Source: Nitrospinaceae bacterium (lineage in GTDB: Bacteria > Nitrospinota > Nitrospinia > Nitrospinales > VA-1). From it: a stretch of 64,000 bases of DNA. The DNA lies in contig JBHHVU010000012.1 in NCBI GenBank assembly GCA_046754465.1, positions 1,850 through 65,849 on the forward strand. Reading direction: 5' to 3'. Made by a program: the position numbers. The first letter of the stretch is position 1; every line of letters begins with the position of its first letter. This document shows positions 15,001 to 27,000 of this stretch, in pieces.

Positions 15001-18000
15001 GACCGGCCGAGCGGGCCTCCAGCGCCGCGATGCCAAATGATTCCCAAATGGTGGGCTGCACGAAAATATCTGCGCGCGAAAAAATCTTCCCTATCTGTTC
15101 ACGCGTTTGATACCCCAGCAACTCCACCGTTTGTTCCAGGCCATACCGGGCAATCCATTTTTCCATTTTTTCCCGGTCCGGTCCCTCCCCAACAATCTTG
15201 ACTTTCAAACGAACCTGGTCAGGAATCCGCCTCAAGATTTTTGGAATCCATTTGATCAAAGCCTTGCCGCGCTTTTTCCGGTACAACCTCATCACCGAAA
15301 CCACCCAGATTTCATTGGCATCCCGCTCCACGGGGGTTACCCGCCAGTCCAGGGGGTCGACCCCCGCCGGCAAAACAAAAACCGCGTCCGGACCGGTCAG
15401 GGCCTTGACATCCGCGGCCACCACCTCGCTCACCCCCGAGACCAGGATCGGCCATTTGGACCATCGGAAGACACCGTCCAATACCGCAAATATAAGGCGA
15501 TAAGGACCCAAAATCGAATTCCAGGTAATGACCCCGGGAATTCCCAATTTCCTGAGCAGGTAAGCCCCCCCATAAGCCACGGGGGAAACAATATTCCCAT
15601 GGCAATGGACCACGTCATAACACGCCTCTTTAAGAAGGGCCTCCATTTTCCGGATAACGGCGGGCGTCCACGCGAGTTTGAAGCGGGGAAACAAGGGGAC
15701 ATTCAACCGGTGAACGGGAATTCCATCCACCCTCCTTTCACCGGGAAATGATGTGATAACATGGACCTCATGTCCCAGTCCCCTCAGCCGGAGTGCCAAA
15801 TCCCGCAAATGCATCTCGGTTCCCCCAACCTGTGGTAAAAACCAGTCGCAAATGAGGGCGATTTTGAGGGAACCGGCTGAGGACACGGATCGATCGGTCA
15901 TTCGATGGAGGCTTGATTCAAGAGGGAAATATTTCCGGGCGATGGAGATGGATAAAGTAAAACAAAATTCTCTTTCATTTACAAATCACCTCAAAAATTC
16001 CGGGGATCGTATTATGAAACCCCAATGCGAATCAACCCAAATGAAGGCGAAATTAACAGCCTTCCATTATTCCATAAAACGATGGAAACAGGATGGGTCC
16101 AGTTAAAACAGAATATTTCCCGCCGGGATTGACTTGGCCTCATATTTTATATAGATTTGATCTCCAGTCTTATAAAACCCGGCCCCTTAATTTTCAAGGA
16201 TTTCCGGATGCAGGACCTCGATCCCACACAAGGAAAAATAATGCGGCCGGAAATTCAAACCCATCTCACCCACTTCCCCTACGTTCAGACTTGGCTGGAC
16301 TGGTGGAAAGGCTGCTCCCTTCCTCGAAAATTGATTCCCCTTTTCCTGGTCACCCTTTATTGGACAATTATTTTTTCATTGGGAGGGTTCCGGCCGGATC
16401 ACTTCATCGGCGGAATGCTGTTCTTGGCTTTTTATTATGGCGGACCCAGGACATTGCCTCTATTTTATTTTCTCCTCCCCTTTTTTCTGATGAGCGCCGC
16501 CTACGATTCCCAGGGGTTCTATGCCGGCCAACTTCGGTCCGAGATCCATTTGAAAGAACCCTACCTTTGGGAAAAAAAATATTTCGGGATTCCCACCGGG
16601 GACGGGGTCCTGCTGCCCGCTGAATGGTTTCAAAAACACACCTACCCCGTTTTGGATTTTCTCACGGGCCTGATATATATCAATTTTATTCCGGTGTATT
16701 TAATGGTCGCCCTTTACATTCGATTTCGGCTGGGCCAGACGGGGCACGCCCATTTTTCCGCCGAGGACATCCAAAAACTTTCGCCGGCCATCATGTGGAG
16801 TATGCTGTGGCTGAACGTGATCTCCTGCTCGACTTATTACTGGTATCCGGCGGCCCCCCCATGGTATGTCGCCCAATATGGCTTTGGGCCCGTCCAATTG
16901 GATGTCCCTCCCAATCCCGCCGGGGGAAGCCGGTTTGACGCCCTGCTCGGCATCCATCTGTACGAAGGATTTTATAAAAGAACACCCAACATATTCGGAA
17001 CGATTCCTTCCACCCATGTCGCCTTTCCCTTGTTATGCACTTACTTCGCGTTCAAATTCAAAACCCTCCGGGTATTCTGCCTGAGCTATTATCTTTTGAT
17101 GTGTTTTTCGGCGCTTTACCTCAACCATCATTATGTCATTGACCTCCTGTGGGGTTCCGCCTACGCCTTGATCGTGGGTTGGGGACTGGACCGTTTTTAC
17201 ACTTGGCGAACCGCGCAGAATAAAACATAACATGTTTCCATTTTCATCCTCAATGACACCGGGAATTTTCCTAACGCTTTGCCCTGGAAAATTCCTGGAA
17301 ATCCTTCAACCGCCAATATCCGTTCCGGGTTTGTTGAACCGATGAAATTGCCTGACGAACGGCTGACCACGAGGATTCTTTGGATATTTTTCGGTTTGGC
17401 GGTGTATCAGTCCGTCTCCTTATTGATTTGGTATTGGCCGGGTTCCCTTCCGGATGGACCCACGAGCGGCGTGTGGGCCTCCCTGGCTTATGATTTTTCC
17501 AAAGGGGTCTTTTACCGGCCCCTCATCAGTGAGGCGGGGTATGGGGGAACGCGGTACATGCCTTTATTTTTCGTCCTGCATGGATTCCTCATCCAGATCT
17601 TTGGGGATCCCCTGACCACAGGTGTGGCCCTCACCTTGACGGCGGCCCTGTTACTGGGACTGGGTATTTATTTTGTCTTGCGGGAACTCGGGGTCCCCTG
17701 GCGGCTGGCGCTTCCCTTCGCCGGAGCCGTGAATTGTACTATTTCCTACCTCCTGGACACATTGACCATCCGTGGAGATTTCCTCGCTGCGGCCTTTAAT
17801 ATTTGGGCGATTGGGTTTGCGTTAAAACACCATGCCTCTCGATCCAAATTCTATCTTGTTTTGTCCGTGACGGCCTTCACCTGTGCCTTCCTGACTAAAT
17901 TCACCTCCCTGTTCGGCCTTCTGGCCGTGTCGCTGTTCTACTTTTTCTCCGGTCACAGAGGGTCGGCATGGAAACTCCTTCTGGGCACCGGATTGGGCAT

Positions 18001-24000: not shown

Positions 24001-27000
24001 GTTTGAGTAAAATGGTGGATACCGGAATGAAATTTCTTCAAGTGACTAAACATGGGCGGCCTTCCCCCATCACGGAATGAAAACCAAAACTTCCCGGTAT
24101 CCGGAAAAGGCCCTGGGATAACGATTTCTTTTTGCAGGCGGCACCGAAGGAATGAAAAAACCGGCCGGGGCTAATCTTTTTATACTTCCTTATACTTCCT
24201 CGGTCTGCCTTTCGCTGGCCACTTCCAACTTTCCGGTTCCTTTGCCGTTTCCTGAGGATTCCACGTTCTCTTCGGAATCTTCCTCAGCGGATTCATTCAG
24301 GGACATCTCCTCCAGCATCCAGGGGACCATCTGTTCGATGCTGGGGCCGCCAAGGAACCGGACCACTGGCAGAGTGATCTCCAGGTCTCTTTCGATCCGG
24401 ACGATGAGTTCCATGGCCATGAGGGAATCCATTCCCAATTCGGTGAGAGGTTGATCCCATTCTAACTTGGATGGGGGTAACCCCAAAACCCTGGCGATGC
24501 ACTTTTGCAGGTAATCCCCCAGAACCTGTGGACGATCCTCCAGTGGCTCGGCTAATAGCTTGGGACGGATCGGGTCCCCCACTTCCACTCCCAATTCATC
24601 ATCGGATTCCACATGAAACTCCTCTTCCCAAACCTGGGAAAACCTGGGCGGCATGTGTTGGGACGGAAACAACGGACCCAGTCTTCTCCAGTTGACGGGA
24701 AACACCGCCGCTTGCACCGGATTCCCCTGGATCAGCTTGCCGAGCATGTCCACGGCTTGCCGGGGGGTCAGGCTCATCATTCCCTGCCCTTCCAGCCTTT
24801 CATTCATTTTCTGGCGCGCGGCGATTCCCACTTCCAGCAAGGGAGCCCAATGGATGACCTGGCCCGGAAGGCCTTTCGCCCGGCGGTAATGGACCAGGGA
24901 TTCCAGGAAAGTATTCGCCGCAACATAATTGGCCTGGCCGGGATTTCCGATGATATTGGCGACGGAAGAAAACATAATGAAGAAATCCAACGAGCGCTTC
25001 AGGCTTTGCTGATGCAGGTTCCAGGCGCCATGAACTTTCGGGGCCATAACCCGGTGGAGCCGCTCCCGGCTGAGGTGGATCAAGAGACCATCGTCAAGGA
25101 CCATGGCGCCGTGCAGAATGCCTTTCAAGGGGGGCATCTTTGTATCGATGTGACGCAGGGCGCGGGTGGCATCCTCCTGCCGAGCCACGTCTCCCTGGAT
25201 CACCTGAACCTCGGCACCCAGCCCCCGCAGAATCGCCACGCCCGCTTTCGCGTCGTCCGAGGAAGCTCCTTTCCGGCCCATGAGCGCGAGGTGCCGCGCG
25301 CCCTGTTTGACCATCCATTTCGCGGCGGCCAATCCGAATCCACCCAGGCCCCCCGTGATGAGATAGGTGACGTTATCCTTGAAAGCTGCCGGCGGGGGGG
25401 TGTCCGGAATGATTTTCAAGGCGGGCTCTTCCATCGAGACAACGATTTTTCCAATATGCCTGGCCTGAGCCATGGTGCGGAAGGCACTCACGATATTGGA
25501 AATGGGGAAAACCCGGAACGGAAGGGAATGCAACTCCCCCTGGCGGACCCGCTCCATGATCTCCATGATGATGGAACGGAATTCCGGTCCAAAATCGCGG
25601 AAACCTTGTTTGAAATCCACCATCGTGATAAACGAGATACCCTTCAGAAACGGCCGCAAAGCCACCTTGTTATTTTGGTAAATGTCCCGCTTGCCGATTT
25701 CCAGGAACCGGCCAAGGGGTTTGAGGAGGCTCACGCTCTTGGTGACAAACGGTCCGGCGAGGGAATTCAATACGATGTCCACGCCTTCCCCATGAGTGAT
25801 TTCCAGGATTTCATCCGCGAAGGCCAGGGACCGGGAATCGAATACATGCTTCACCCCGAGGGCCCGCAGGAAATCTCTTTTTTGTTCACTGCCTGCAGTG
25901 GCGAACACTTCCGCCCCGGCCCTCATGGCTATTTCCACCGCCGCCAGGCCCACGCCTCCCGAAGCCGCGTGAATCAAAACCCGTTCGCCCTTACGGAGAT
26001 TTCCGGCCCGGTGCAGCATGTAATATGCGGTCAGGAAAGCAGCGGGAAGGGTTGCGGATTCCTCGAAACTCAAATTTTCGGGTTTGTGGACGGTCGATAA
26101 CGCAGGAACCAAAGCGTAAGCGCCAAAGCACCCACCGTTGGAAAGCGCGAGAACTTCGTCCCCCACCTGGAAATCATCGACCCCCTCACCCAGCGCGGTG
26201 ATGATGCCGGAACATTCCAGGCCCAATGTTTCCCAGAGGTGTTCTTTCCCATCCATCTCCTCGGGAAGCAGGCCCATGGCGATCATGACGTCACGGAAAT
26301 TGAGGGCCGCGGCGCGAACCTGAATCTCGACTTCGCCCGGACCCGGTTGGCGGCGGACGGTTTCCCGCAGCTTGAAATTTTCCAGGATTCCCGGCGCGGG
26401 AATCTCCAAAACAAAGGGAGGCATTCCGCTTGCCTTGTCCCGGGCCTCCCGTTTGACAATATTTTCCTTGGGACCCGGCCGGACCAGGCGGCGGACGAAT
26501 CGTTGATTCCCCCGCAGGGCAATCTCCACTTCCGCATCTTCCCGCCACAATTCATGGACAAGTCCCTCCACCCCATCCGGCGGATTCATGGGATCCAGGT
26601 CCACCATCTTGCATCGCAGGTTGGCATGTTCCCCCTGGATCACCTGACCGAGACCCCAAACGGGTGATTGCGCCACGGAAGACAGCGTATCCGCCGGGGA
26701 CACGTGTTGTCCGCCCCGGGTTACCAGGAAAAGGCGTGAAGCCCGCGGCCAATGGATTTGGGCCAGTTCCTGGACGAGGTAGACGATGTTGAGACAACCC
26801 TCCCGCTCGCCGGTTTCCAGATCGTTTAAGGAAAGTTCGGAAGTTTCCGGCATGTCCAGACTCCAAAGATGAACGATGCCGCGCAAGGGGGAAGATTCCT
26901 TCCGGACCGAATCGATCAAACACCCCATGTCTTCCGGACAGTCCGGACGAATGATTACCCGGTTGTCCCGCAATTTTTTAAACGTCTTGCCCTTTCCGAC

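Follow-up and report, generated by a model that had tools for sequence, protein, structure and literature searches.

Do the genes at this locus of a Nitrospinaceae bacterium, a relative of the marine nitrite-oxidisers, jointly specify one inositol sphingolipid, or do they merely lie side by side? Ceramide-anchored inositol-phosphate lipids are typical of fungi and plants, and to our knowledge inositol-phosphate ceramide lipids are so far known from only a few bacteria. Our literature search agreed with the survey's finding of a gap in publications on ceramide and inositol sphingolipid synthesis in Nitrospinota. The window is the whole 64,000-nucleotide stretch of DNA analysed (positions 1850-65849 of contig C12 of this genome, G000), and all coordinates in Table 1 are window positions. 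It is, in our opinion, somewhat more probable than even that the region at 13.7-33.7 kb is a single island whose genes build an inositol-phosphoceramide that carries sugars and possibly also a chain of polyketide origin. Such a lipid would correspond in bacteria to the MIPC/GIPC of fungi and plants, with glycan tools that resemble the mycobacterial PIM pathway. We infer all pathway steps from homology, structure prediction and gene distribution. Plausibly, this genome makes inositol-phosphoceramide by combining Caulobacter-type ceramide synthesis with a Bacteroides-type phosphatidylinositol-phosphate synthase (PIPS) and an Aur1-like transferase.

Table 1. Genes of the conserved island, which extends from the flippase-like gene to the second ceramide synthase paralog.
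Feature	Position	Strand	Basis
Flippase-like membrane protein, LPG_synthase_TM / MprF flippase-domain family, 329 aa	13708..14697	+	Pfam PF03706 E 2e-33, TIGR00374
GT4 glycosyltransferase, PimA-like, 392 aa	14723..15901	-	Pfam Glycos_transf_1 + Glyco_transf_4
PAP2_3 phosphotransferase, candidate inositol-phosphoceramide synthase (Aur1 / BT_1522-like), 340 aa	16208..17230	+	Pfam, NCBIfam, PDB relatives
GT-C fold glycosyltransferase paralog a, ArnT/PMT/OST-like, C-terminal periplasmic domain, 532 aa	17279..18877	+	AlphaFold model
GT-C fold glycosyltransferase paralog b, 543 aa	18881..20512	+	41% identity to paralog a
GT2 polyprenyl-phosphate hexose (mannose-type) synthase, 309 aa	20557..21486	+	Pfam, PDB relatives
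GT-C fold glycosyltransferase, ALG3 / GPI-mannosyltransferase-I / PimE class, 495 aa	21766..23253	+	AlphaFold model
PIP synthase-like CDP-alcohol phosphatidyltransferase (PIPS), ORF 276 aa	23223..24053	-	NCBIfam, PDB relatives
Type I PKS, single-module, fully reducing, C-methylating, 2,562 aa	24190..31878	-	Pfam domains
Second putative bacterial ceramide synthase (bCerS-2), GNAT-type N-acyltransferase, 378 aa	32587..33723	+	Paralogy to C25 protein

The arrangement of these genes is not due to chance. Among 120 Nitrospinota genomes, for which the survey had given no count, the cluster is syntenic in 11, i.e., in this genome and 10 others; PAP2_3, the orthologous PIPS and the bCerS paralog occur in the same 11. 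The order PAP2_3, 0-2 GT-C, GT2, 495-aa GT-C, PIPS, (PKS), bCerS-2 is kept across five genera. The PKS and the glycosyltransferases, which the survey had tied to the sphingolipid by adjacency only, are conserved parts of the cluster in relatives. The genes that the survey listed on contigs C12, C25 and C66 all lie where it placed them, but the locus is larger than it described and also holds bCerS-2, which is divergent from the PKS. In a cross-phylum comparison of 80 PAP2_3 loci, 75 of them outside Nitrospinota, a radius of 10 kb around PAP2_3 took in PIPS in 39 loci, myo-inositol-phosphate synthase (MIPS) in 27 and SPT or bCerS in 20, with all of PAP2_3, PIPS, MIPS and SPT/bCerS together in four (L108, L117, L124 and L131).

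The candidate transferase matches Pfam PAP2_3 (E 5e-16) and the NCBIfam model NF052609, "phosphoinositol dihydroceramide synthase" (E 4.8e-49), at 167 bits, which is under the cut-off of 480. Among solved structures, only Aur1 entries are related to it at E<0.01 (best 9vj3, E 2.5e-15); the alignment with yeast Aur1, an IPC synthase, covers the SxH and HHYxxD motifs, and residues S268, H270, H307, H308 and D312 are invariant among eight orthologs. Lipid phosphatases are common among PAP2 superfamily members, however, and a search of this genome for a PgpA-type PIP phosphatase found none, an absence that the survey had already recorded; the small PAP2 gene that adjoins PIPS in G007 and G050 is likewise absent here. 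The cluster might make a diacylglycerol-anchored, PIM-like PI glycolipid, with PAP2_3 not a ceramide transferase but perhaps the PIP phosphatase that is otherwise lacking, or else an enzyme that remodels head groups, and with the bCerS paralog and the PKS serving a separate lipid. PimA, PimE and Ppm-like matches of the glycosyltransferases would suit a PIM pathway, and 60 of the 80 loci have neither SPT nor bCerS within 10 kb of PAP2_3. We nevertheless consider this improbable. The specific relatives of PAP2_3 are the solved Aur1 and the NCBIfam dihydroceramide synthase; according to the published account, deletion of BT_1522 in B. thetaiotaomicron abolishes PI-DHC but not PI-DAG (PMC9246714). 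Ceramide genes do adjoin PAP2_3 in 20 of the 80 loci, bCerS-2 accompanies the cluster in 11/11 genomes, and the clusters of relatives also hold a Lipid_DES sphingolipid desaturase and a fatty-acid hydroxylase.

Assignment of the head group depends on PIPS. It is matched by the models of AIP, PIP and BT_1523 synthases with E-values from 3e-43 to 2e-37, and no score reaches its cut-off (NF040950, 148 bits; NF045883, 130 bits; NF052561 for BT_1523, 129 bits; the NCBIfam comparison quoted is 130 bits against 170), whereas models of the PgsA type yield a far lower 26 bits. Among solved structures, RsPIPS (5d91) matches at E 2.5e-22, and alignment with M. tuberculosis PgsA1 (6h53) shows S132, P153, R155 and R195 retained and K135 replaced by R; the roles of these residues are those described for the M. 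tuberculosis enzyme, in which the conserved arginines bind only the acceptor phosphate (PMC4634129). Since relatives align from residues 45-58, the true start probably lies near residue 52. The Nitrospinota PIPS set keeps 21/21 columns that are at least 90% conserved in 19 MIPS-linked PIPS. In the DGxxAR signature, this genome's PIPS alone has K for R, which is found in 18 of the 19 MIPS-linked sequences and in four other Nitrospinota PIPS.

The sub-cut-off scores against all three equivalog models, together with arginines that contact nothing of the acceptor beyond its phosphate, leave room for a head group other than inositol, in which case PIPS would act on some other phosphorylated alcohol, and the head group that PAP2_3 passes on would yield, say, a phosphoglycerol ceramide. 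Moreover, MIPS (PF07994, E 4e-91) is encoded here on another contig, C66, in a separate cluster with NTP-transferase, CDP-alcohol transferase and HAD genes, which is of the Bacteroides vulgatus "alternative" type; the survey had correctly reported the gene and overlooked its surroundings. We regard such a head group as very unlikely. MIPS (PF01658) is present in 11/11 cluster genomes versus 50/109 other Nitrospinota, PIPS homologs adjoining PAP2_3 in other phyla have MIPS alongside in 25 of 39 cases, no acceptor-pocket column separates MIPS-linked from Nitrospinota PIPS, and the PgsA-type models fit poorly.

The ceramide itself would come from contig C25, from the cluster or from both. On C25 the gene order is SPT, a 373-aa protein, an SDR/epimerase, a CDP-alcohol transferase and an MMPL transporter. 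The SPT matches NF047600 with 457 bits against a cut-off of 640, and the 373-aa protein gave no match in a family search. Over its full length, bCerS-2 is 36-37% identical (E 1e-79) to this protein, which is encoded between SPT and the reductase; bCerS-2 has a weak Pfam Acetyltransf_1 match, and its homologs carry PF00583. Synteny, paralogy and membership of the GNAT family point to a putative bCerS identity. The bCerS-2 type is confined to exactly the 11 PAP2_3-bearing Nitrospinota genomes; in genus g5 and in G050, no other bCerS-type gene was found. The survey had spoken of a full gene set for every known step. The core inositol-phosphoceramide reading stands, with the Aur1 relative, the PIPS arginines and the 80 loci behind it; the claim of a complete set overreaches, with a PgpA-type phosphatase missing and with PAP2_3, PIPS and SPT all under NCBIfam equivalog cut-offs. 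As we picture the core pathway, C66 MIPS would provide inositol phosphate, PIPS would couple it to CDP-diacylglycerol, and some phosphatase would release PI. The Aur1-like PAP2_3 would then transfer phosphoinositol from PI to a ceramide made by C25 SPT, bCerS and CerR and/or the cluster bCerS paralog.

The three proteins between PAP2_3 and PIPS that the survey called unknown (g01006, g01007 and g01009) are GT-C fold glycosyltransferases, as indicated by models of the 532-aa and 495-aa proteins and by the 41% identity of the 543-aa protein; the alignments behind the models were shallow (7 and 10 sequences). Paralogs a and b have only weak Pfam PMT_2 matches (E 3.5e-3 and 1.7e-3) and share the invariant columns of alignment A1, e.g., D72 and the SPGT..NH..D block. 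The paralog a model (pLDDT 85.5, pTM 0.86) aligns best in VIA-align with Pmt4 (Z 23.5, 348 aligned, rmsd 4.4), ArnT (Z 22.9, 434, rmsd 5.2) and AglB/OST (Z ~22). The 495-aa protein, which has no Pfam, NCBIfam or PDB sequence match, was modelled with pLDDT 76.9 and pTM 0.82; Foldseek ranks the GPI mannosyltransferase I of C. glabrata first (E 1.2e-4), and VIA-align ties ALG3 (Z 21.8, 363 aligned), GPI-MT-I (Z 21.3, 381) and PimE (Z 21.1, 347). The GT2 (Pfam Glycos_transf_2, E 1e-28) is closest to Pyrococcus dolichol-phosphate-mannose synthase (5mlz, E 8e-31), and this match alone suggests that its hexose is probably mannose. For GT4, the best solved relative is the phosphatidylinositol mannosyltransferase PimA (4n9w), which aligns over the full length at E 7.5e-19; BshA is practically level with it (E 1.7e-18), and MshA follows (4e-13).

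Since the best folds for paralog a include protein O-mannosyltransferases (Pmt4, Pmt1-Pmt2), ArnT and OST, the acceptor of the GT-C_A paralogs could be protein or lipid A. The product might then be a plain inositol-phosphoceramide as in Bacteroides, with the GT4, GT2, GT-C and flippase-like genes merely co-located and acting on another envelope target, e.g., on lipid A or LPS core in the manner of ArnC/ArnT, or on proteins that are O-mannosylated in the manner of Ppm/Pmt. The NodB-type deacetylase and LptF/G genes a few kb upstream of the cluster would fit such a role, as would the varying number of cluster GT-C genes among relatives (0 to 3) and the position of the GT-C_A copy 11-20 kb away in G042, G043 and G049. 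We consider this unlikely. The glycan genes between PAP2_3 and PIPS share the PAP2_3 strand, with spacers of 48, 3, 44 and 279 nt; the 495-aa GT-C occurs in 10/120 genomes, all 10 cluster-bearing, and the GT-C_A family in 13, including 11/11 cluster genomes. The 495-aa protein resembles mannosyltransferases of inositol lipids and dolichol glycans, and the GT2 is far nearer to Dol-P-Man synthase than to ArnC (4.5e-13). Glycan genes recur with PAP2_3 in other phyla, at L063 and L069, the latter in Verrucomicrobiota, with GT4 beside PAP2_3 in both. Among the nine relatives whose flanks were fetched, GT2 is in the cluster in 9/9, GT4 within the flanks in 7/9, and a 54-61% identical copy of the flippase-like gene nearby in 6/9. 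In Bacteroides, too, both inositol-lipid clusters have a gene of this flippase-like family beside them (PMC9246714).

For the glycosylated lipid that we favour, the PimA-like GT4 would begin the glycan on the cytoplasmic face by adding one sugar from a nucleotide-sugar donor, and the flippase-like protein would mediate outward movement of the lipid. The GT2 would make a polyprenyl-phosphate-hexose, probably mannose, from which the three GT-C enzymes would extend the glycan in the periplasm.

The PKS has the KS-AT-DH-MT-ER-KR-ACP architecture and length that the survey reported. Its KS begins at residue 1, a domain search found neither a loading nor a thioesterase domain, and the motifs include GHSMG and YAFH in AT and DSL at 2484 in ACP. 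Of the 11 cluster genomes, 8 have a 55-58% identical copy flanked by PIPS and bCerS-2; the G007 and G050 clusters lack it, and the G046 locus ends at a contig end there. The thioesterase-less iterative enzyme may use its own ACP to assemble an acyl chain with methyl branches and hand it to SPT, as in the SgaAB system reported in 2025 (PMC12134224), or to bCerS-2; either would take over the chain, which would therefore end in ceramide. That report describes Pseudomonas fluorescens sphingolipids made by the iterative type I PKS SgaA and the SPT-like SgaB. In this genome the PKS is not adjacent to an SPT, which counts against this part of the proposal. In the Opitutaceae locus L064, a related PKS stands beside AONS, a bCerS-like gene and PAP2_3, and this AONS-PKS pair resembles SgaAB.

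Some Nitrospinota, together with scattered Verrucomicrobiota and Pseudomonadota, may make a true bacterial glycosylated inositol-phosphoceramide (GIPC), i.e., a ceramide-anchored phosphoinositol glycolipid whose periplasmic glycan would be built from polyprenyl-phosphate-mannose by GT-C enzymes and whose methyl-branched chain would come from a polyketide synthase (PKS). We put this reading forward tentatively, with a little less than even confidence. Fungi, plants, and protozoa have inositol sphingolipids as characteristic lipids; to our knowledge, those of bacteria have been worked out genetically in gut Bacteroides only. 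The genes concerned lie in a cluster within the window (G000:C12:1850-65849) and at two further loci, on contigs C25 and C66, of the genome under study (G000). Each gene that the survey's finding had named on the three contigs was found in its place, the positions given for the cluster being those counted along the window.

Coordinates of the cluster genes, of the two associated loci, and of further features mentioned in the text
Feature	Contig or locus	Position	Strand	Remark
Envelope-lipid island	window	6015-13574		upstream of the cluster
CDP-alcohol transferase, 354 aa	window	7306-8370		within the island
Two LtaS-like sulfatase-domain proteins	window	9451-13574		64% identical
Flippase-like LPG_synthase_TM protein	window	13708-14697		upstream of PAP2_3
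GT4	window	14723-15901		upstream of PAP2_3
PAP2_3 protein	window	16208-17230	+	
Membrane protein (GT-C_A)	window	17279-18877	+	paralog of the next
Membrane protein (GT-C_A)	window	18881-20512	+	paralog of the preceding
GT2	window	20557-21486	+	
495-aa membrane protein	window	21766-23253	+	
CDP-alcohol phosphatidyltransferase (PIPS-like)	window	23223-24053	-	
PKS, 2,562 aa	window	24190-31878	-	KS-AT-DH-MT-ER-KR-ACP
bCerS-2 ORF	window	32587-33723		divergent from the PKS
Oxidored_molyb, FGE-sulfatase-domain, and DUF547 proteins	window	33825-36080		after bCerS-2
SPT, 373-aa protein, SDR, CDP-alcohol transferase, MMPL transporter	C25			gene order
CDP-alcohol transferase (288 aa) and MMPL/HpnN-like RND transporter	L001 (C25)	5243-8525		after SPT, bCerS, CerR
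MIPS and its neighbours	L002 (C66)	4064-11737		
Hydroxylase ortholog	C16	3813-4541		
MIPS-NTP transferase fusion, 630 aa	L141 (G043:C2)	907-2799		
Extra genes between GT4 and PAP2_3 (G047)	L046	1617-5515		
Extra genes between GT4 and PAP2_3 (G049)	L048	2574-5508		

The PAP2_3 protein is, judged from its sequence, a plausible candidate for the enzyme that moves phosphoinositol from phosphatidylinositol (PI) to ceramide. It matches PF14378 (E 5e-16) and NF052609, the model of PI-dihydroceramide synthase (E 4.8e-49; 167.4 bits, with the cut-off of 480 not reached), and by NCBI's criterion the sequence is that of a homolog, not an equivalog, of this family. Its sole solved relative is Aur1, with which the catalytic motifs of the Aur1/BT_1522 type, SxH and HHxxxD, align. 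Residues S268, H270, H307, H308, and D312 of the PAP2_3 protein are invariant in 8 orthologs. In Bacteroides thetaiotaomicron, deletion of BT_1522 is described as abolishing PI-dihydroceramide while PI-DAG is kept (PMC9246714).

A scan with the PAP2_3 alignment gave 581 relatives, of which the best 80 loci were taken (5 from Nitrospinota and 75 others, including Desulfarculia, Bdellovibrionota/Oligoflexia, Opitutaceae, Leptospiraceae, Vicinamibacteria, Longimicrobiales, Myxococcota, and Saprospiraceae). In these 80 loci, phosphatidylinositol-phosphate synthase (PIPS) lies within 10 kb of PAP2_3 in 39; the corresponding counts are 27 for inositol-phosphate synthase (MIPS), both types taken together, and 20 for SPT/bCerS. 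One or more of the three can be seen at 47 of the 80, and at 36 of the 48 with full flanks; four loci (L108, L117, L124, and L131) combine CerR, bCerS, SPT, MIPS, PIPS, and PAP2_3. These neighbours tie the PAP2_3 family to inositol-phosphate and ceramide metabolism.

The NCBIfam models agree in kind with the survey's assignments of PAP2_3, PIPS, and the C25 SPT, all three scoring below the equivalog cut-offs. For PIPS, the scores are 130 against 170 (NF045883), 148 against 180 (NF040950), and 129 against 350 (NF052561), and the match to the BT_1523-type model has E 1.8e-37. The CDP-alcohol transferase signature DxxDGxxAR...GxxxDxxxD, taken from PMC9246714, is represented by D122, D125, G126, A129, K130, G139, D143, and D147, with lysine for arginine in G000 alone; this is also the only departure of the Nitrospinota PIPS from the 21 columns whose conservation in 19 MIPS-linked PIPS reaches 90% or more. 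In an alignment with Mycobacterium tuberculosis PgsA1 (6h53), S132, P153, R155, and R195 are kept, and K135 is replaced by arginine. The mycobacterial R155 and R195 are described as binding the phosphate of inositol phosphate (PMC4634129).

An apparent absence of MIPS in the relatives raised the alternative that the head group is not inositol: a long-type MIPS protein query and Pfam PF07994 both came up empty in the other cluster genomes. The short-type MIPS that stands beside PIPS in L063, a locus of a Pseudomonadota MAG, matches PF01658 alone, and a search with PF01658 found MIPS in 10 of the 10 cluster-bearing relatives (11 of 11 with G000). The objection to inositol was dropped for this reason. 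It follows that calls of MIPS absence from PF07994 alone are unsafe, since both that model and the long-type query miss the short type. Across the phylum, for which 120 genomes including G000 were counted throughout, PF01658 finds MIPS in 61, namely in 11/11 cluster genomes against 50/109 others; by genus, the figures are 5/5 against 13/25, related genomes being non-independent samples. Besides a stand-alone MIPS of about 430 aa, cluster-bearing relatives (G043, for example) have a 630-aa protein in which short-type MIPS is fused to an NTP transferase. The fusion suggests that inositol phosphate is channelled directly to CDP-inositol.

The survey had credited this genome with every step of inositol sphingolipid synthesis. 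Candidate genes are present for PAP2_3, PIPS, MIPS, SPT, bCerS, and CerR; for the phosphatidylinositol-phosphate phosphatase of the PgpA type, PF04608 gave 0 hits in G000. A small PAP2 gene adjoins PIPS in two relatives (G007 and G050) and is a candidate for this phosphatase.

The putative ceramide genes on C25 form one operon of an SPT-type alpha-oxoamine synthase (457 bits to the CFB-type NCBIfam model), a GNAT-type acyltransferase, and an SDR reductase; the order is kept in G074, G090, G077, G037, and G042, and Spt, bCerS, and CerR genes are described as clustered in PMC11334938. Both Atlas look-alikes and homologs place the middle gene among GNAT acyl-CoA N-acyltransferases. The cluster contributes a second putative copy of bCerS, bCerS-2, the ORF of which has by itself a weak GNAT match and found no meaningful match in the PDB. 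Over its full length it is paralogous to the C25 373-aa protein (36-37% identity, E 1e-79), and its homologs, about 375 aa long, belong to the GNAT-type acyltransferases. Genus g5 has SPT directly beside the reductase, without a bCerS gene in between, and the cluster paralog is the sole bCerS found. Sphingolipid genes are common in this phylum of marine nitrite oxidisers, bCerS of either type being present in 74/120 genomes. In Caulobacter, Spt and bCerS are described as cytoplasmic and CerR as periplasmic (PMC11087976), which is consistent with an outer-face location of both head-group transfer and GT-C glycosylation.

Downstream on C25, a CDP-alcohol transferase and an MMPL/HpnN-like transporter follow the three ceramide genes. 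The five-gene order is kept in G090, G077, G037, and G042, while G074 is without a detected MMPL gene and G044 has SPT-CerR alone. The two additional proteins may be a Kennedy-type ceramide head-group transferase and a sphingolipid exporter.

Three cluster proteins that the survey had left as unknown can now be assigned to the GT-C fold. Profile searches of PDB sequences with the alignments of the 532-aa family (GT-C_A) and of the 495-aa protein gave 0 hits at E<=10, and the two proteins were therefore modelled from ortholog alignments. The model of the 495-aa protein (pLDDT 76.9, pTM 0.82) has a GT-C fold; its best Foldseek match is Candida GPI mannosyltransferase I (GPI-MT-I), and VIA-align gives a tie of ALG3 (Z 21.8), GPI-MT-I (Z 21.3), and PimE (Z 21.1). 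The model of the 532-aa protein (pLDDT 85.5) falls into the PMT/ArnT/OST class of GT-C enzymes (Z 22-23.5 to Pmt4, ArnT, and OST). Protein and lipid A transferases are thus among the matches to its fold; the third protein is the neighbour and paralog (41% identical) of the 532-aa protein. In GT-C enzymes that use polyprenyl-phosphate sugars, the first extracytoplasmic loop has an acidic residue that is conserved. Invariant acidic residues are D72 in the GT-C_A alignment and E39, D93, D115, and E119 in that of the 495-aa protein.

The best solved relative of GT2 is the dolichol-phosphate-mannose synthase of Pyrococcus (E 8e-31), with ArnC at 4.5e-13; we infer mannose as the sugar of the glycan. 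GT4 is practically tied between PimA (E 7.5e-19) and BshA (E 1.7e-18) among solved structures and reaches no NCBIfam equivalog. The cytoplasmic GT4 may already act on PI before head-group transfer; in the proposed pathway, the GPI-MT-I/PimE/ALG3-like and PMT/ArnT-like GT-C enzymes would extend the glycan in the periplasm. GT4, the 495-aa GT-C, and two GT-C_A genes recur with PAP2_3 in L069 (Opitutaceae), and L063 has the flippase-like gene, GT4, PAP2_3, a GT32 gene, PIPS, and MIPS. A flippase-like gene of the LPG_synthase_TM family is described next to both Bacteroides inositol-lipid clusters (PMC9246714).

The PKS begins with the KS domain and lacks a thioesterase; the YAFH motif of its AT domain is ambiguous. 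A precedent is described in Pseudomonas fluorescens MYb115, in which the iterative PKS SgaA passes its chain to the SPT-like SgaB, yielding sphingolipids (Peters et al. 2025, PMC12134224). In L064 (Opitutaceae), an AONS gene overlaps a KS-AT-DH-ER-KR-ACP PKS beside a bCerS-like gene and PAP2_3, and in other Opitutaceae a gene with KS alone stands between PIPS and SPT. The direct PKS-AONS pairing of L064 is absent in G000, where PIPS and bCerS-2 are the PKS neighbours and SPT is on C25. The chain may be off-loaded by SPT, which would give a branched long-chain base, or it may be off-loaded by bCerS-2, which would give a branched N-acyl chain.

PAP2_3 occurs in 11/120 genomes, and the same 11 have PIPS orthologs of at least 48% identity and the paralog type of bCerS. 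The 495-aa GT-C is found in 10/120, all within these 11, and the GT-C_A family in 13/120, i.e., the 11 cluster genomes, one 31% match, and one weak match. The order PAP2_3, 0-2 GT-C_A, GT2, 495-aa GT-C, PIPS, (PKS), bCerS-2 is observed in five genera, and GT2 in 9/9 relatives examined. A PKS with 55-58% identity belongs to the cluster in 8/11 genomes; it is absent from G007 and G050, and in G046 a contig end falls at this place. A sphingolipid desaturase of the Lipid_DES type is also part of the relatives' clusters, as is a fatty-acid hydroxylase. Of these further genes, G000 has a hydroxylase ortholog on C16 and no clear counterpart of the small PAP2, 222-aa, and Lipid_DES genes.

With B. thetaiotaomicron and its cluster BT_1522-BT_1526 (Heaver et al. 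2022, PMC9246714; Sartorio et al. 2022, PMC8791184), G000 shares an Aur1-like PAP2 transferase, a PIP synthase, and MIPS in the genome, as well as a nearby LPG_synthase_TM gene (BT_1521 in Bacteroides). Unlike the Bacteroides system, G000 has no BT_1525-like PgpA phosphatase, its MIPS lies outside the cluster, and its ceramide would be made by Caulobacter-type SPT, bCerS, and CerR. The G000 cluster adds three GT-C genes, the GT2 resembling dolichol-phosphate-mannose synthase, the possibly PimA-like GT4, the PKS, and the ceramide synthase paralog, and its proteins fall far short of the equivalog cut-offs in score.

The mycobacterial PIM pathway comprises PgsA1, PimA, PimE, and Ppm1 (structures 6h53, 4n9w, and 9dm5). 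G000 shares with it the phosphate-binding residues of PIP synthase, a GT-C with structural similarity to PimE (Z 21.1), and a GT2 resembling polyprenyl-phosphate-mannose synthase; its GT4 has PimA as top solved match, practically tied with BshA. Both systems point to cytoplasmic steps followed by periplasmic ones. It should be noted that the identity to PimE is 11-12% only, and that no PimB or acyltransferase was identified in G000; moreover, the predicted anchor is ceramide, attached via an Aur1-like enzyme, rather than diacylglycerol, and the host is Gram-negative.

Analogously, the IPC, MIPC, and GIPC pathways of fungi and plants (Aur1, 9vj3 and 9ivc; GPI-MT-I, 9wno) resemble G000 in the Aur1 catalytic motifs, in the GPI-MT-I-like GT-C and the GT2 related to dolichol-phosphate-mannose synthase, and in a product logic that leads from ceramide to phosphoinositol to sugars. 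In eukaryotes, MIPC is made from GDP-mannose by synthases of family GT32. A GT32 gene stands beside PAP2_3 in L063 and none in the G000 cluster, which also has no Kei1 partner and no transamidase, and ceramide synthesis in G000 is of the convergent bacterial type. With SgaAB, G000 shares a single-module, thioesterase-less type I PKS tied to sphingolipid genes, whereas the G000 enzyme has an extra C-methyltransferase domain and is flanked by PIPS and bCerS-2, not by AONS.

In bacteria, the synthesis of IPC, that of PIM, and PKS-derived sphingolipids are individually known; what is new is the predicted combination of the three within a single conserved cluster. Literature searches found no description of a bacterial pathway to mannosylated or otherwise glycosylated IPC. 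Full-text searches, with the supplementary taxon list of Ding 2024 and the paper of Stankeviciute 2022 (PMC8891067) outside their scope, found no paper on Nitrospinota with sphingolipids or inositol lipids. Ding et al. (2024, PMC11334938) report 38 phyla with Spt-like genes; "Nitrospin" does not occur in the main text, and the supplement may list Nitrospinota. If the reading is true, a single bacterial operon holds counterparts of Aur1, DPM1, and PIG-M-type enzymes, and the PIM, GPI, and GIPC pathways, usually treated as separate inventions, become linked. The cluster would fuse three lipid themes: the ceramide synthesis of bacteria, a periplasmic glycosylation of the PIM/GPI kind, and chains made by a PKS. 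It offers a testable gene set for a glycosylated inositol sphingolipid in bacteria. Lipids of this kind could also be used as biomarkers when marine and vent samples are studied by lipidomics.

The only MIPS of G000 sits in the C66 locus, together with a HAD hydrolase, an NTP transferase, an HpnL/LPG_synthase_TM protein, a 399-aa CDP-alcohol transferase, a GFO/IDH/MocA (inositol-dehydrogenase-like) oxidoreductase, and a class III aminotransferase. The "alternative" inositol lipid cluster of the Bacteroides vulgatus type (Heaver et al. 2022) is described with the same composition of MIPS, NTP transferase, CDP-alcohol phosphatidyltransferase, HAD hydrolase, and LPG_synthase_TM, its function being putative even in Bacteroides; C66 differs by the further inositol-dehydrogenase-like gene and the aminotransferase. 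The 399-aa transferase is most like the DIPP-synthase domain (E 5e-26), and the locus could therefore make a di-inositol-phosphate solute instead of an inositol lipid; an aminocyclitol could be another product. G000 may thus have two routes that use inositol phosphate.

Several features next to the cluster deserve mention. The envelope-lipid island upstream of it comprises a Metallophos protein, the 354-aa CDP-alcohol transferase (the fourth of its kind), a NodB-type deacetylase, and the LtaS-like pair. G050 and G044 keep the Metallophos, deacetylase, and LptF/G neighbours and do not keep the CDP-alcohol transferase and the sulfatase pair. The LtaS-like genes were considered as cluster members and excluded because they are absent from most relatives' clusters. 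Between GT4 and PAP2_3, G047 and G049 have a Lipid_DES sphingolipid delta-4-desaturase-like gene and a stand-alone zinc-ADH/enoyl-reductase-like gene, to which G047 adds a second fatty-acid desaturase and a fatty-acid hydroxylase. The three genes that follow bCerS-2 keep their synteny with it in genera g4 and g5, and over 30 paralogous matches to the FGE-sulfatase-domain protein are spread across G000. No RNA runs carrying window positions 16208-24053 were listed; four DNA runs, all of one study and labelled hydrothermal vent metagenome, two of which may be the source, carry this segment.
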